Origin: Gaiellaceae bacterium
Lineage (GTDB): Bacteria; Actinomycetota; Thermoleophilia; Gaiellales; Gaiellaceae
DNA: 42,367 bases
Assembly: GCA_035641605.1 (NCBI GenBank)
Contig: DASQTZ010000044.1
Span: forward strand, 1 to 42,367
Reading direction: 5' to 3'
Position 1 is the first letter of the stretch. Every line of letters begins with the position of its first letter. The position numbers and the translations under genes are program-made. The notes under the pieces are model-generated. The model did not search any database. It worked only from the letters and a program-made list of their open reading frames with translations, and was not told the origin of the DNA. Positions 4,907 through 9,593 of this stretch are shown here, one piece after another.

Positions 4907-6640
4907 CTAGCGCACTCTTTCCTTGACCTGCGCCGACCATTTCAGAGCCTGGAGGTAGGCGAGCGAGCGTGGGCGGCGTAGTACCTCCGCGCTCCGGAGA
5001 CTGACGAGAAACTCTTCGGGGTCGTGGAACGCGCGCATGCGCACACCACCGGTGCCGAGCCCTTGGAGCACATGCGCGTCGGACCCCGCGCCCATCGTCA
5101 GGTTGTACTTGCGGGCAAAGCGCTCCGCCTCGTCGTTGTATTGCTCGAAGAGCAACCGTGCGTTGTAGACCTCGAAGACGTCAATGTCGGCCAGGTGCCT
5201 GTGCAACGTCGCCGCGTCGGGAATCGCGTGCATCCGGTCGAACGGATGGGGGAGATAGACGAGTCCGCCCTGCTCGCGGATCGCCGTGATCGTGTCTTCG
5301 AACGAGAGACCCCGTGGAATCTCCTCATCGAGGAAGAGCCCGATCACCTCGCCCTGGCCGGCCGTCTTGATCTCCTCGCCCGGGATGACCGTCAGCTTGC
5401 GGTCGCGTCCGAGCTCGACGGCCTCGAGCGCGCCGCCGAAAGCGTTGTGGTCGGTGACCGCGATCGCTCCCAGCCCTTGTCGTTCGGCCTGGTCGAGCAG
5501 CTCGGCCGGCTCGACGAGACAGTCGTGGGACCACGAGGTGTGCGAGTGGAGGTCACAGAGGATCCACGGCCGATCCGACAGCGGGTCGGCTGATCTGGAC
5601 TTCGCGCGCCGCCGCTCCGCCAGCCGCCGGTAGAGCTCGTCCAGCTCCTCGCCGAGCTCGGCGAAGCTTTGACCTTCCGCGTGCCGCCGTGACTCCGCCT
5701 GTGCGGTGGCTCGGAGCTCGTCGTTCTCGGCGAGGCGGGCCAGGGCGGCCGCCGCGAGGGCCGGCTGCTCCCGCACGCCGGGAGGCGAGGCGACTGCCGC
5801 GCCCGCGGCCTGTGCCTCGAGCTCCAGGCGAGGGAGACCGGCGAGTCCGGGCACGAAGATCGCCGCCTCGTTGAGCAGCGGAGCGCGGAGCGCGCCCGAG
5901 AGCGCGGTACGAACGTGGGCTCGTTTCCTGAGCGACGGCGTGATCGAAGGCCGCCCCGACAGCGGCTTCGTACGGAGAAGGATGAGCTCCCAGTCGGGCA
6001 ACTCTTTGAGAACTGAAAGGACGGCTCTGGTCAGCGGCCGCTCGCCGGTCCGCCACTCACAGACGACGAGCCGGCGTTTCGCCGCCGGGCTGAAGAGTTC
6101 CGTGTCGACTCCGAGCGGTACCGATCGGTACTCGCCCGGGAACCGCATCTCGGCCGCCTCCGCCGCAAGCGCGGACGTTGCCAGCAGCGCATCGATCCGC
6201 CCGAGTAGGCGCCTGCGCTGAGCGCGGCCCGGCGGATACCCGAGGCGGTCCGGCGAGAGGAAGGTCGCCACCGCGAGCGAGCGGGCATCCCGCAACGCGA
6301 GATAGGACAGGCTCGGCAAGCCCGGCTCGAACCCGTGGACGACGTCGTATTCGCCCCGAGCGAGCGCGAGCGCGAGGTTCGCCCGGACGCCGACAGGCAG
6401 ACCGATCCTGCTTCGGCGCGAGATGGGGACGGCCGGCCCCAGCGCGATGACCTCACGTCTGGCGCCATCCTGAAGAGCACGCCGCCCGGCGAGCAGGTCG
6501 GCGGCACGATTCGACGGGGCGAGCACGCTGACCTCGTGTCCGAGGTTGCGAAGCGCCCCAGCCGCGCCCGCGACGTGCTCGTTGACGTCATGAGGCTGCG
6601 ACCAGGAGAACGGCGTGACGAGGCAGATACGGAGCGTCAC
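4907..6640 (-). CDS. Fusion protein: GT4 glycosyltransferase (PimA-like) N-terminal part plus C-terminal PHP-domain metal-dependent phosphoesterase
   Basis: N-terminus LRICLVTPFSW...GHEVSVLAP...FEPGLPSLSYLAL is GT4/PimA-like. The C-terminal 220 aa carry the PHP motifs CDLHSHTSWSHD, VTDHN, PGEEI, LPHPF and GSDAH. It is a single uninterrupted 577-aa ORF with a GTG start. Confidence 0.85.
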   Translation of the reverse strand: MTLRICLVTPFSWSQPHDVNEHVAGAAGALRNLGHEVSVLAPSNRAADLLAGRRALQDGARREVIALGPAVPISRRSRIGLPVGVRANLALALARGEYDVVHGFEPGLPSLSYLALRDARSLAVATFLSPDRLGYPPGRAQRRRLLGRIDALLATSALAAEAAEMRFPGEYRSVPLGVDTELFSPAAKRRLVVCEWRTGERPLTRAVLSVLKELPDWELILLRTKPLSGRPSITPSLRKRAHVRTALSGALRAPLLNEAAIFVPGLAGLPRLELEAQAAGAAVASPPGVREQPALAAAALARLAENDELRATAQAESRRHAEGQSFAELGEELDELYRRLAERRRAKSRSADPLSDRPWILCDLHSHTSWSHDCLVEPAELLDQAERQGLGAIAVTDHNAFGGALEAVELGRDRKLTVIPGEEIKTAGQGEVIGLFLDEEIPRGLSFEDTITAIREQGGLVYLPHPFDRMHAIPDAATLHRHLADIDVFEVYNARLLFEQYNDEAERFARKYNLTMGAGSDAHVLQGLGTGGVRMRAFHDPEEFLVSLRSAEVLRRPRSLAYLQALKWSAQVKERVR

Positions 6641-6694: not shown

Positions 6695-6723
6695 GGGAGG
6701 GCCGGCGCCGCACCGGCCCTCCC
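6695..6723 (-). terminator. GC-rich stem-loop between ino1 and the GT4-PHP gene (possible U-tract-less terminator/attenuator)
   Basis: Perfect 11-bp stem GGGAGGGCCGG / CCGGCCCTCCC with a 7-nt loop, beginning 10 nt after the ino1 stop. There is no U tract on the minus-strand transcript. Confidence 0.4.
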
Positions 6724-6732
6724 TTTATCTCT

Positions 6733-8196
6733 TCAGGCCTTCGCCTTGGCGCGCGAGGGCTTGCGCGCGTACTGCTTGATGAAGCGCTCGACGGCATCCC
6801 GCGCCTCGGCGTCGGGGATCTGCTTCGGCGGCGACTTCATCAGGTAGGCGCTCGGCGCCTCCAGCGCCCCGGAGATCCCGTTGTTCAGCGCCAGCTTCGC
6901 CAGCCTCACGGCGTCGATCACGATGCCGGCCGAATTCGGCGAGTCCCATACCTCGAGCTTCAACTCGAGATTGAGGGGCACGTTCCCGAAGGTCGTCCCT
7001 TCCATGCGGATGTACGCCCACTTCCGGTCCGTGAGCCACGGGACGTAGTCGGACGGCCCCACGTGGACGTTCTCCACGCCCAGGTCGTAGTCGAGCACCG
7101 ACGTGACCGCGTTCGTCTTCGAGATCTTCTTGGACTCGAGCCGATCCCGCTCGAGCATGTTCAGGAAATCCGAGTTGCCGCCGACGTTGAGCTGCATCGT
7201 CCGGTCGAGTCGCACGCCCCGGTCGCGGAAGATCTGCGTCAAGGCGCGGTGTGTGATCGTCGCGCCGACCTGGGACTTGATGTCGTCGCCGATGATCGGC
7301 AGGCCGCGCTCCTCGAACTGCTTCTGGAAGTAGCCGCCCTTGGCGATGAAGACCGGCATGCAATTCACCATCGCGCAGCCGGCGTTCAGGATCTGCTCGG
7401 CGTACCACTTGGTCGCTTCCTCCGAGCCCACAGGAAGGAAGCTGACGACGACGTCGGTGCCGGTCTCCTGGAGGATGCGAACGACGTCGTCGGTGTCGCC
7501 GGGGGCCTTCTCGACGACCTCGGCGAGGTACTTGCCGATCCCGTCGTGCGTCATCCCGCGCGAGACCTTGACGCCGGTCTTCGGAACGTCGGCGAACTTG
7601 TAGGTGTCGTTGGGCCGCGCCCAGATCGCGTCCGAGAGGTCCTTGCCGACCTTGTCGGCGGTGACGTCGAACCCCGCGGTGAACTCGATGTCGCGGACGT
7701 GATAGCCCCCAAGATTCACGTGCATGAGACCGGGGACGAACTCGTCCTCCGGTGCGTCCTTGTAGTACTCGACGCCCTGCACGAGCGAGTTCGCGCAGTT
7801 CCCGACGCCGATGATCGCGACGCGGACGCTGTCTTCGCTGCGGGCTGAGCTTCCGTTTCTGGATGGCATGCGTTCCTTTCTCCTGCTTGGGACGGCGGCC
7901 CCGAGCCGCTCGCCCAGGATCTCGACGATCAAGTCGTTGGTGCTACGGCCGCGCTCGGCAGCCCTGGTCTCGAGCTTCTCCTTGAGCGCCGCCGGCATGC
8001 GCAGCAAGACATCGCCTTTGCCCTTCGGCGCGGCGCCCTTGCGGCCGCTGGGCTCGAAGGGCACGGCGAAACGCGACGCCAGGATCCCGACGGCGACGTC
8101 GTTGAGACTGCTGCCGGCGCGCGTGACTTCGGCGGCCAGTCGCTGTTTTAGTTCGCCCGGAACCCGGACGAGGACGTCTCTTCTGCTAGCACTCAA
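6733..8196 (-). CDS. ino1: myo-inositol-1-phosphate synthase with an in-frame N-terminal tandem ribbon-helix-helix (Arc/MetJ-like) extension; internal ATG at 7869 with its own RBS
   Basis: The MIPS core ([22 protein letters not shown] onward) starts at ATG 7869, preceded by AGGAGAAAGGAA. The 109 codons upstream are in frame, contain no stop and have coding-like GC3. They encode two Arc-like repeats, [36 protein letters not shown] and [36 protein letters not shown]. The outermost start is TTG 8196. Confidence 0.8.
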
Positions 8197-8205
8197 GTGC
8201 TAGCA
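8184..8205. promoter_or_regulatory. Perfect inverted repeat TGCTAGCACT-ca-AGTGCTAGCA, candidate operator
   Basis: 10-bp arms with a 2-bp centre. The TTG start of the RHH reading frame (8196-8194) sits at the dyad centre. The repeat lies between the PIP synthase stop (8214) and the RHH-ino1 ORF. Confidence 0.5.
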
Positions 8206-8213
8206 AGCGTACC

Positions 8214-8846
8214 TCAGTACTGCTTCAGCTGTCGCCGGACGTGGTTGACGCGCTGGAAGACGGTCAGCCACGCCGTGACGTTGAGCAGGTAGACGGCCCA
8301 GGGCAAGAGCCCCCAGGGCGCCAGAAACAGTCCGCTGACGATCACGATCACCCGTTCCGCCCGACTGCCGATGCCGACATCACCCTTCAGGGTCAGAGCC
8401 TCAGCGCGGGCGCGTGTATAGCTGACTAGGAACGACCCGGCCAGTGCGGCGAAGGTGGCACCGAGCGCAATCTCGTTTCCGTCGCGCGTGAAGACCAGGC
8501 CGATGGCGCTGAGCATGACCGCCTCTCCGAGCCGATCCGTCGTCGAGTCGAGGAAGGCGCCGAACGGCGTCCCCTTGCCGCTCTGCCGGGCGAGCGCTCC
8601 GTCGAGGATGTCCAGCAGCGATCCGGCCCAGAAGAGCGTCGCCCCGGTCCAGAACCACAGCAGCTCGTTCCGGTCCTCAAAGTAGACGGCGACTGCGCCG
8701 GCGGCGCAGAGCGATAGCCCCAATGCGGTGAGCGCATCGGGCGTGATCCGGGTGCGTGCGAGGCCGACGATGGAGCGGGCGGCGACTCGCCGGACGCCCG
8801 TGGTGTAGCCCGCCTTGACTCGGGCCGCGCCGCCCTCGCGACCCAC
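8214..8846 (-). CDS. CDP-alcohol phosphatidyltransferase, phosphatidylinositol-phosphate synthase-like
   Basis: CDP-alcohol motif DILDGALARQSGKGTPFGAFLDSTTDRLGE (D-x2-DG-x2-AR...G-x3-D-x3-D) in a polytopic protein. The gene sits between a PAP2 gene and ino1. Confidence 0.85.
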   Translation of the reverse strand: MGREGGAARVKAGYTTGVRRVAARSIVGLARTRITPDALTALGLSLCAAGAVAVYFEDRNELLWFWTGATLFWAGSLLDILDGALARQSGKGTPFGAFLDSTTDRLGEAVMLSAIGLVFTRDGNEIALGATFAALAGSFLVSYTRARAEALTLKGDVGIGSRAERVIVIVSGLFLAPWGLLPWAVYLLNVTAWLTVFQRVNHVRRQLKQY

Positions 8847-9593
8847 TTACGTGGTGCGGACGAGCGCCCGCTTCACCGTCCGGCCGTGAATCACTGCGGC
8901 CGCGACGAGCACCACGGCGATGCCGGCGGCGATGTCGAGCCAGAAGTGGTTGGCGGTTGCCATAACGGCGAACCACACCCACGCCGGCCAGATCAGCCAG
9001 AGCGCTTTCAGCCAGCTGCGGCGGACGAGGATCGCCAGCGTGACGCCGACGATCAGTGCATCGGCGGCGTGAAGGCTCGGCATCGCCGCGTACGGGTTGG
9101 AGGCCAGCTCGACCAGGGTCGAGCCATGGTTTGCGGTCCCGACGGCCGCGAGCGTGTCCACGAAGCCGAGCTCGGGGAAGTAGCGCGGCGGCGCGGTCGG
9201 GAGTAGCACGTACCCGACCAGCCCGATCACGTTCGCGAGCATCAGCAGGTTGCGGAAGCGGATGAAGTGGCTGTAGTGGCGGAAGTAGACCCAGAGCAGC
9301 GCCAGTCCGACGACGGCGAACTGCGACAGCCAGTAGGTCCACGACGTCAGGAGGCCGAGCAGGTGAAACGACTCGGTCCAGCTCTGGAGCGAGAGCTCCC
9401 AGAGTCCCGTCGCGCGCCGCTCGAAGTCGATCACGCCGCGCGCGTTCTCGAAGGCAACCGACGGGCTCCGGTCGGCGATCCCGCGCACGACCTGATAGGC
9501 GAGCACGAACCCGAACCAGATCAGGATCTGGCGGAAGAGGTCGAACCAGCCGCGCGGTAGGACGCGGCGTTCGGCGGCGGCGACCGAAGTCAT
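8847..9593 (-). CDS. PAP2-superfamily membrane protein (PAP2_3 / Aur1-Ipt1 inositolphosphotransferase-like)
   Basis: Motifs NPYAAMPSLHAADAL and ATANHFWLDIAAG in a multi-TM protein. Its stop directly abuts the GTG start of the PIP synthase gene. Confidence 0.75.
   Translation of the reverse strand: MTSVAAAERRVLPRGWFDLFRQILIWFGFVLAYQVVRGIADRSPSVAFENARGVIDFERRATGLWELSLQSWTESFHLLGLLTSWTYWLSQFAVVGLALLWVYFRHYSHFIRFRNLLMLANVIGLVGYVLLPTAPPRYFPELGFVDTLAAVGTANHGSTLVELASNPYAAMPSLHAADALIVGVTLAILVRRSWLKALWLIWPAWVWFAVMATANHFWLDIAAGIAVVLVAAAVIHGRTVKRALVRTT

Follow-up and report, generated by a model that had tools for sequence, protein, structure and literature searches.

The ino1 gene of a Gaiellaceae bacterium, carried on contig DASQTZ010000044.1 of assembly GCA_035641605.1 (the whole stretch of 42,367 nucleotides is referred to as the window), almost certainly encodes a genuine fusion protein, in which a module of two tandem ribbon-helix-helix (RHH) units precedes an inositol-3-phosphate synthase (MIPS). 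The open reading frame (ORF) lies on the minus strand, starts at TTG 8196, ends with the stop codon at 6733 and codes for 487 residues. It had been described in an earlier note made from the DNA sequence alone, and both RHH peptides quoted in that note were found in frame. On the genomes compared, the fusion is the rule across the order Gaiellales. We propose that the protein is an autoregulated trigger enzyme made as two isoforms, one with and one without the RHH module, and put the probability of this model as a whole at roughly 0.55. The positions of all features are listed in Table 1.

RHH-MIPS fusion among Gaiellales

The 109 codons of the ORF before ATG 7869 contain no stop, which the earlier note, pointing to their G+C-rich third positions, had read as a sign of a real gene. 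The stretch is indeed free of stops, with a G+C content at third positions (GC3) of 0.83 compared to 0.93 in the MIPS part; however, it is not significant here, because the window has a G+C content of 68.7% and 34% of all stretches of this length in its six frames lack a stop. The composition-based probability of such a stretch is 0.11. As the absence of stops is uninformative, homology, conservation and selection have to carry the case. The G+C-rich window is full of long antisense ORFs along its whole length, and the 130-residue ORF that starts with ATG on the plus strand opposite the RHH module (7811-8203) is almost certainly spurious, since selection and the Pfam matches favour the minus-strand frame.

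A scan of one genome per GTDB species revealed 166 genomes with a relative of the module, and the best 80 of the 166 loci were analysed. The related loci recovered are all from metagenome-assembled genomes (MAGs), many of them from soil, and the 80 belong to Gaiellaceae, Gaiellales or Thermoleophilia, except for one contig labelled Pseudomonadota. Both parts are seen in 78 loci, and in 76 of these the RHH frame continues into MIPS without a stop, at identities of the RHH part down to 65%, and no relative in this set has a stop between module and enzyme. The two exceptions (L036 and L045), which lie on very long contigs of MFD-series MAGs, carry frameshifts that would destroy MIPS too and are therefore taken to be assembly errors. 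As the 109-residue module query listed only proteins of up to 191 residues, fusions among database proteins were judged by the full-length query, which matched at least 120 protein clusters of 470-498 residues with identities of 79-95% over 95-100% of the query. More distant fused or partial forms share about 41-55% identity in the module. In addition, an identical 487-residue protein is encoded on an independent soil-metagenome contig (ENA ERZ923686).

These data leave next to no chance that the in-frame junction is an artefact of assembly or sequencing near 7860-7880. Metagenome assemblies do have a general error rate, and L036 and L045 do show frameshifts. Nevertheless, 76 of 78 species-level genomes, originating from numerous studies and sequencing platforms, keep the junction in frame, as does the identical protein of the independent assembly, and the frameshifts seen in databases lie downstream of the internal Met or inside MIPS, where they would inactivate the enzyme as well. 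Both the missed stop and the constantly separate RHH gene that the earlier note had considered can thus be set aside.

Several database entries that seem to break the rule were rejected. Four proteins on long contigs (P0016, P0064, P0087 and P0102) resemble stand-alone RHH genes, but their frame switches after the internal Met into an out-of-frame MIPS, which marks them as errors or pseudogenes. Three apparent fusions to other proteins (P0266, P0278 and P0377) are frameshift-chimeric ORF calls of the same locus, which also contains the gene of a phosphatidylinositol-phosphate synthase (PIPS). Single-base frameshifts within the locus occur in several MAGs or gene calls (L036, L045 and L021; P0016, P0087, P0266 and P0278), giving chimeric or truncated ORFs that can be mistaken for separate RHH genes or new fusions; the genome loci concerned belong to MFD-series MAGs. 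The contig labelled Pseudomonadota (L074, JBLNEO010000070.1, from a MAG named “Pseudomonadota bacterium”) has the PIPS, RHH-MIPS and downstream genes typical of Gaiellales, and its label most likely reflects a binning error rather than horizontal transfer.

NCBI and gene callers annotate the long ORF, and some callers choose the internal ATG, as in P0385 (378 residues). The hundreds of such ORFs in databases are named only “inositol-3-phosphate synthase” or “myo-inositol-1-phosphate synthase”, a label that hides the predicted DNA-binding domain.

Predicted single-chain fold of the tandem module

Scanned against Pfam, the 109-residue module passes the curated cut-offs of HicB (33.2 bits in two stretches, cut-off 21), FitA-like_RHH (30.9, cut-off 27) and Arc (26.7, cut-off 20.4), which places it by sequence in the RHH (Arc/MetJ) superfamily, as the earlier note had claimed for both units. 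It also matches Arc-like repressor families of PHROGs. Scanned alone, unit 2 reaches 25 bits against Arc, over the cut-off of 20.4, and unit 1 gives only a sub-threshold HicB match of 16.4 bits. By sequence comparison, unit 1 is a diverged internal duplicate of unit 2, because the two are 43% identical with an E-value of 3e-10. A reading of the module as a HicB-type antitoxin was rejected, as there is no toxin partner, the neighbouring genes belong to lipid synthesis, and the match is confined to the RHH part of the HicB model.

In the intact fused ORFs of 73 related loci, the median ratio of nonsynonymous to synonymous substitution rates (dN/dS) amounts to 0.25 in unit 1 and 0.34 in unit 2, compared to 0.25 in MIPS. 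By this measure both RHH units are under purifying selection. The ratio is higher in the inter-unit linker (0.42) and at the RHH-MIPS junction (0.49), the fastest-evolving segment, which differs in both length and sequence among relatives. Residues Arg11 and Arg66 in the strands and the helix-cap motifs Asn32-Asp33 and Asn87-Asp88 are conserved.

AlphaFold2 prediction of the module alone, using a 47-sequence alignment, gave a model with a predicted local distance difference test score (pLDDT) of 80.3 and a predicted template modelling score (pTM) of 0.72, in which a β-α-α arrangement occurs twice. The strands of residues 5-12 and 61-68 must pair with each other in this model, since it contains no other strands, and they would form the ribbon of a complete two-unit RHH2 fold within one chain. 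Thus far in line with the earlier note, we consider it very probable that the module adopts a single-chain RHH2 fold, for which no dimerisation is needed.

A Foldseek search of the PDB with this model gave as best matches the 102-120-residue chains E, F and G of the F-plasmid relaxosome, which we take to be F TraY, with template-modelling (TM) scores of 0.61-0.68 over 95-112 aligned columns and 16-20% identity. The next match is the permuted single-chain Arc (PDB 1U9P), with TM scores of 0.58/0.65. The E-values of the search are weak (best 1.5e-3), at a probability of 1.00. A sequence search of the PDB with the module found no match to TraY even at E-values up to 10, and the best match was Mnt, with an E-value of 0.039. 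The predicted fold is therefore that of a TraY-like tandem in one chain, and the module may work like TraY; membership in the TraY family is unsupported by sequence.

The 325 homologues of the module include many stand-alone tandem-RHH proteins of 100-140 residues, which are 33-55% identical to the module over both units and the inter-unit linker, with its FxVxFEPxGR motif (for example P0254, P0256, P0259, P0269, P0270, P0281 and P0288, and loci L082-L084). They differ from the enzyme-fused module in being free-standing, and many of them end in a conserved R-x-x-P-F-G-G-G-R-R tail. Three stand-alone genes were inspected in their contexts; none lies beside inositol genes, and two sit in surroundings resembling mobile elements or prophages, with HTH_3 neighbours, DUF932 and many small ORFs. 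Judged from these similarities, the stand-alone family is the likely donor of the module. The fused relative P0278 keeps the sequence VPFGGGRRKET directly before its MIPS start.

The same evidence bears on the view that the RHH region is translated negligibly or not at all, so that only the 378-residue enzyme matters and the upstream DNA is a high-G+C by-product and a cis-regulatory region bound by some other factor. In favour of this view are the frequency of stop-free stretches in the window, the TTG start without a Shine-Dalgarno sequence and the callers that pick the internal ATG. It is nevertheless highly improbable, given the purifying selection on the RHH frame, the Pfam matches over cut-offs together with a confident AlphaFold2 fold, the many stand-alone homologues, the complete lack of a relative with a stop between module and MIPS, and a start codon that is always found 7-9 codons before the first strand (32 TTG, 27 GTG and 22 ATG among 81 sequences).

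Two start codons and a conserved palindrome

The enzyme part (residues 110-487, from ATG 7869) matches PF01658 with 124.3 bits (cut-off 27) and NCBIfam TIGR03450, mycothiol_INO1, with 545.3 bits, which is under the equivalog cut-off of 638; it is a close relative of the mycothiol-pathway equivalog without being filed as such. Residues 11-364 of the enzyme query align to chain residues 12-365 of Mycobacterium tuberculosis Ino1 (PDB 1GR0) with an E-value of 5.7e-147, and ATG 7869 therefore corresponds to the canonical Ino1 N-terminus. By family membership the enzyme part is a mycobacterial-type MIPS, and its dN/dS argues for an active enzyme.

The internal start codon is kept in 78 of 79 loci, as ATG in 77 and as GTG in L015, the remaining locus (L045) being frameshifted. 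A Shine-Dalgarno-like 5-mer occurs at positions -18 to -5 of this start in 78/78 loci, compared to 8.3% of equivalent windows within the MIPS coding sequence, in agreement with the internal ribosome-binding site for an enzyme-only product that the earlier note had predicted. The amino acids encoded at the purine-rich motif vary (RRKER, SRKEP, GSTGP, RRTRP, GRSTKP and LGKEP) while the motif itself persists, which points to selection acting on the RNA. No Shine-Dalgarno-like 5-mer precedes the long-form start in any of the 81 sequences. In mycobacteria, ATG or GTG is reported to be sufficient for leaderless initiation, and TTG is not mentioned (PMC6448022). The simplest reading of these patterns is a long isoform weakly translated from a leaderless or short-leader transcript, and an enzyme-only isoform strongly translated. 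We regard the production of both forms, of 487 and 378 residues, as likely.

Alternatively, only the long protein might be made, and the internal ATG and purine run be kept as a linker motif and a conserved Met. This explanation agrees with the annotation of the long ORF by NCBI and gene callers. It is unlikely, since the 5-mer is kept in all loci against a background of 8% even though the encoded amino acids vary, since the sole substitution of the Met codon is GTG, another start codon, since the junction is otherwise the fastest-evolving segment, and since the internal ATG coincides with the canonical N-terminus of Ino1.

The start of the long form overlaps or abuts an inverted repeat, which the earlier note had put forward as a candidate RHH site and which is kept in every relative. 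In the alignment of 5' regions it reads T-G-[C/A]-TAGCAC-N4-GTGCTA-[G/T]-C-A in all 81 sequences. The core is exact in 77 of them, with one mismatch in L010, L034, L047 and L071 and a spacer of always 4 nucleotides, an invariance that is partly built in, as part of the core was prescribed by the regular expression with which the loci were aligned. The core occurs once in the 42-kb window, and the palindrome once per locus of about 12 kb, always 6-62 nucleotides upstream of the first RHH residue and overlapping or abutting the long-form start in 81/81 sequences. In the clade of the window (clade 1), the TTG start occupies the first three bases of the spacer and the right arm is read TTG AGT GCT AGC; TTG stands at the same place in 30 related loci with a TTGA spacer, and ATG in L077. 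In clade 2, the first three bases of the right arm are a GTG start and the arm is read in the other frame, GTG CTA GCA, and in clade 3 the palindrome lies about 8-10 nucleotides upstream of an ATG. Because the arm is read in different frames between clades, the palindrome is, on this comparison, conserved as nucleic acid and not as protein. A distant relative, L086 (43% identity in the module), has TATACT-GC-TAGCAG-N5-CTGCTA with an in-frame TTG in the spacer.

Such a repeat could be either a DNA site or an RNA hairpin. In the latter case, a stem would form on transcripts reading through from PIPS with the TTG in its loop, where it might throttle translation of the long form or stabilise or process the mRNA, and the RHH module would bind another target. 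The palindrome can indeed fold on a read-through transcript into an 8-bp stem with a 4-nucleotide loop containing the start codon (z-score of the region -2.7), the PIPS gene ends just 18 nucleotides upstream of the long-form start, and one outer pair alternates between C-G (41 loci) and A-T (18), a compensated change. However, the sequence itself is conserved, TAGCAC and GTGCTA being invariant across lineages in which about half of the synonymous sites are substituted. The deviations are moreover of non-wobble type, with an uncompensated A.G at the outer pair in 12 loci and elsewhere 6 G.G and 3 C.C mismatches, whereas G.U appears no more than once at any position. The hairpin of clade 3 would not include the start codon, and in loci where PIPS is 0.4-1.9 kb away the palindrome stays with the RHH gene. 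If the -10-like hexamer described below is real, transcription starts inside the left arm and the hairpin cannot form. RHH repressors, furthermore, usually regulate their own genes. An RNA hairpin thus seems rather improbable, and the pattern agrees less well with an RNA stem than with a DNA site bound by a protein, the centres of the two half-sites being 10 bp apart.

The palindrome is probably the DNA operator of the module. Two RHH2 dimers of Arc occupy neighbouring half-sites that are separated by about one helical turn, and the 10-bp spacing of the half-sites here suggests, by analogy, an arrangement as in Arc. In five loci (L043, L045, L047, L054 and L074) the palindrome is accompanied on its upstream side by another copy, complete or partial. 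The distance between the two centres in L043, L047 and L054 is 21 bp, or about two helical turns, which would be compatible with simultaneous binding by four RHH2 modules belonging to a single tetramer.

In 56 of 77 loci the TAGCAC core is preceded, at a distance of 2-3 nucleotides, by a TAnnnT hexamer (for example TATAGT, TATACT and TATCCT); the distant relative L086 has such a -10-like hexamer too, and TACGCT abuts the left arm in the window. For comparison, mycobacterial promoters have (T)ANNNT between -6 and -13 as their -10 motif, and transcripts with a leader of at most 5 nucleotides are classed as leaderless (PMC6448022). By analogy with this motif, TACGCT would be a promoter element, with transcription starting 1-3 nucleotides before the TTG.

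Proposed autoregulation, precedents and the inositol-lipid locus

A predicted DNA-binding domain and an enzyme stand on one polypeptide conserved in 76 of 78 loci and at least 120 clusters, as expected of a trigger enzyme, and the model we propose is as follows. The weak start at TTG 8196, without a Shine-Dalgarno sequence, would give the long isoform, whose N-terminal approximately 100 residues would fold from two RHH units into a complete RHH2 DNA-binding domain, joined to a normal inositol-3-phosphate synthase through a flexible tether about 25 residues long. The internal Shine-Dalgarno sequence and ATG 7869 would give the enzyme alone, probably at a higher level. The homo-oligomer that MIPS enzymes form, a tetramer, would serve as a scaffold that presents two or more RHH2 modules in two-fold symmetry, two of which may bind the inverted TAGCAC half-sites, one helical turn apart. 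Binding should block transcription, because the palindrome abuts the -10-like hexamer and contains the long-form start codon; binding would mask the putative -10 region together with the starts of transcription and translation, and we infer repression rather than activation of the gene. The first step of phosphatidylinositol synthesis would thereby come under negative autoregulation. The short isoform would supply most of the catalytic capacity, and may dilute the long isoform in mixed tetramers.

Several observations weigh against this model. The long-form start of the window is a TTG without a Shine-Dalgarno sequence; in clade 2, the start lies about 6 nucleotides beyond the expected transcription start, and the long form may be very poorly translated. 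A strict sigma-70 scan of 7800-8400 found no promoter, and the hexamer TACGCT is itself weak. The short distance to the PIPS gene makes read-through transcription possible, and with it the folding of the palindrome as RNA. To these are added the weak E-values of the Foldseek matches and the share of the palindrome's invariance that stems from the alignment procedure. Finally, AlphaFold2 prediction of the full-length protein (36-sequence alignment) reached a pLDDT of 48, with an unusable enzyme part, and therefore offers no geometric check of whether half-sites at a distance of 10 bp are within reach of two N-termini of a MIPS oligomer.

A more speculative extension, which we hold only tentatively and consider doubtful, is that the enzyme body acts as sensor and dosage meter. 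Of the mixed tetramers formed by the two isoforms, only those with at least two long subunits would clamp the palindrome, so that repression rises steeply with the long-to-short ratio and with total enzyme, and binding of glucose-6-phosphate, NAD(H) or an inositol phosphate at the active site would alter the presentation of the RHH2 modules. If true, the supply of a lipid headgroup would be coupled directly to transcription by a self-contained feedback device consisting of a single gene and its two start codons.

In functional terms, the nearest precedent is trifunctional PutA, in which an RHH DNA-binding domain and a metabolic enzyme share one polypeptide. In Escherichia coli and Salmonella, PutA carries its RHH domain at the N-terminus and is the autogenous repressor of its own regulon (PMC5293562). 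The two proteins differ in several respects. PutA has one RHH unit per chain, the RHH2 fold forming between two chains, whereas RHH-MIPS has two units in one chain. The PutA enzyme is a PRODH/P5CDH flavoenzyme, unrelated to the NAD-dependent MIPS, and its switch consists of flavin reduction and membrane binding, whereas no switch is known for RHH-MIPS. Moreover, PutA has no known internal start for an enzyme-only isoform, compared to the conserved internal start of RHH-MIPS. The closest structural precedent for the module, with two tandem RHH units per chain, is TraY of the F plasmid, a monomer with the entire RHH dimer fold in one polypeptide (PMC12117103). TraY, however, is a stand-alone conjugation protein without a fused enzyme, which binds oriT as a train of monomers.

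Arc and Mnt of phage P22 and the engineered single-chain Arc (1U9P) are of the same Arc family as the module, according to the Pfam and PHROGs matches. Natural Arc and Mnt are nevertheless single-unit chains that assemble via dimer-dimer contacts (Arc) or a C-terminal coiled coil (Mnt), whereas the presumed scaffold in RHH-MIPS is the enzyme. NikR carries its RHH domains on a separate tetramerisation and ligand-binding domain and recognises a palindromic operator with two half-sites; it differs in having one RHH unit per chain and a C-terminal domain that is a dedicated nickel sensor, not an enzyme. Transcriptional control of ino1 by inositol supply is exerted in Corynebacterium and Mycobacterium by the LacI-type IpsA, a separate protein of an unrelated family encoded elsewhere, whereas the putative regulator of RHH-MIPS is part of the enzyme.

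A literature search for RHH combined with inositol-1-phosphate synthase, or for an N-terminal extension of MIPS, found no paper on such a fusion, in keeping with the earlier note's remark that a MIPS with a DNA-binding domain had not been described; the genome paper of Gaiella occulta does not mention the gene. RHH-MIPS would be a second, independent case of a PutA-type RHH-enzyme fusion, with two twists beyond PutA, namely a naturally single-chain RHH2 module and a conserved internal start that should yield an enzyme-only isoform. The fusion suggests a way for an oligomeric enzyme to take the place of the dedicated domain through which classical RHH repressors oligomerise, and it would be a compact regulatory device for the first committed step of phosphatidylinositol synthesis, in which one polypeptide serves as the enzyme and, most likely, represses its own gene. 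Knowledge of Gaiellales comes almost wholly from MAGs, and their gene regulation is essentially unexplored.

The genes around ino1 are arranged in the order MoaA, a PAP2_3-family protein, PIPS, the palindrome, RHH-MIPS and a fusion of a PimA-like family 4 glycosyltransferase (GT4) with a PHP-family phosphoesterase (GT4-PHP). The PIPS gene is directly upstream in 81/81 sequences, the PAP2_3 gene lies upstream in 68/81 and the GT4-PHP fusion downstream in 66/81. As PIPS consumes the inositol phosphate made by MIPS, the locus is a phosphatidylinositol (mannoside) cluster, and the neighbours point to phosphatidylinositol synthesis rather than to the filing of the enzyme under the mycothiol pathway. 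The N-terminal part of GT4-PHP (residues 3-187) matches the PimA structures 4N9W and 2GEJ with an E-value of 1e-12, and its C-terminal part (residues 354-552, with PHP structure matches over residues 354-523) is a PHP-family metal phosphoesterase. Since the gene sits beside the phosphatidylinositol-phosphate synthase, the PHP domain is a candidate phosphatase for the conversion of phosphatidylinositol phosphate to phosphatidylinositol, a step that to our knowledge is poorly defined in Actinobacteria. The PAP2_3 protein is a further candidate lipid phosphatase or phosphotransferase of the inositol-lipid cluster; the end of its gene meets the start of the PIPS gene at 8846/8847 with zero gap, which suggests translational coupling. 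Scans of the window for Rfam families and tRNAs gave no match.

Table 1. Features of the RHH-MIPS locus, with positions in the window
Feature	Position	Strand	Remarks
Long ORF	6733..8196	-	487 residues; tandem RHH module, linker and MIPS; putative long isoform
TTG start of putative long isoform	8194..8196	-	inside the 4-nucleotide spacer of the palindrome
RHH unit 1 (residues 5-44)	8065..8184	-	strand 5-12, helices 14-27 and 31-43; AlphaFold2 model; dN/dS 0.25
Inter-unit linker (residues 45-60)	8017..8064	-	pLDDT 68; dN/dS 0.42; part of linker conserved
RHH unit 2 (residues 61-98)	7903..8016	-	strand 61-68, helices 69-81 and 86-98; Pfam Arc; AlphaFold2 model; dN/dS 0.34
Flexible junction between RHH module and internal Met (residues 99-109)	7870..7902	-	pLDDT <50; dN/dS 0.49
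Shine-Dalgarno-like AGGAGAAAGGAA, purine-rich	7873..7884	-	within the long-form coding sequence
Internal ATG, start of putative enzyme-only isoform (378 residues)	7867..7869	-	matches N-terminus of M. tuberculosis Ino1
MIPS (inositol-3-phosphate synthase) domain and stop codon	6733..7869	-	PF01658, TIGR03450, 1GR0; dN/dS 0.25
Candidate operator, inverted repeat TGCTAGCAC-TTGA-GTGCTAGCA	8184..8205		core TAGCAC-N4-GTGCTA at 8187-8202
TACGCT, TAnnnT (-10-like) hexamer abutting left arm	8206..8211	-	putative promoter element
PIPS (CDP-alcohol phosphatidyltransferase)	8214..8846	-	PF01066; PDB 6H53, E 4.6e-25
PimA-like GT4 glycosyltransferase fused to PHP phosphoesterase	4907..6640	-	577 residues; downstream of ino1
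PAP2_3-family gene	8847-9593	-	248 residues; PF14378, E 1.7e-40
G+C-rich hairpin GGGAGGGCCGG-N7-CCGGCCCTCCC	6695-6723	-	11 bp; 10 nucleotides after ino1 stop; without T-run

The G+C-rich hairpin that follows the ino1 stop codon, about 55 nucleotides before the start of the GT4-PHP gene, may act as an actinobacterial-type factor-independent terminator or may stabilise the mRNA.

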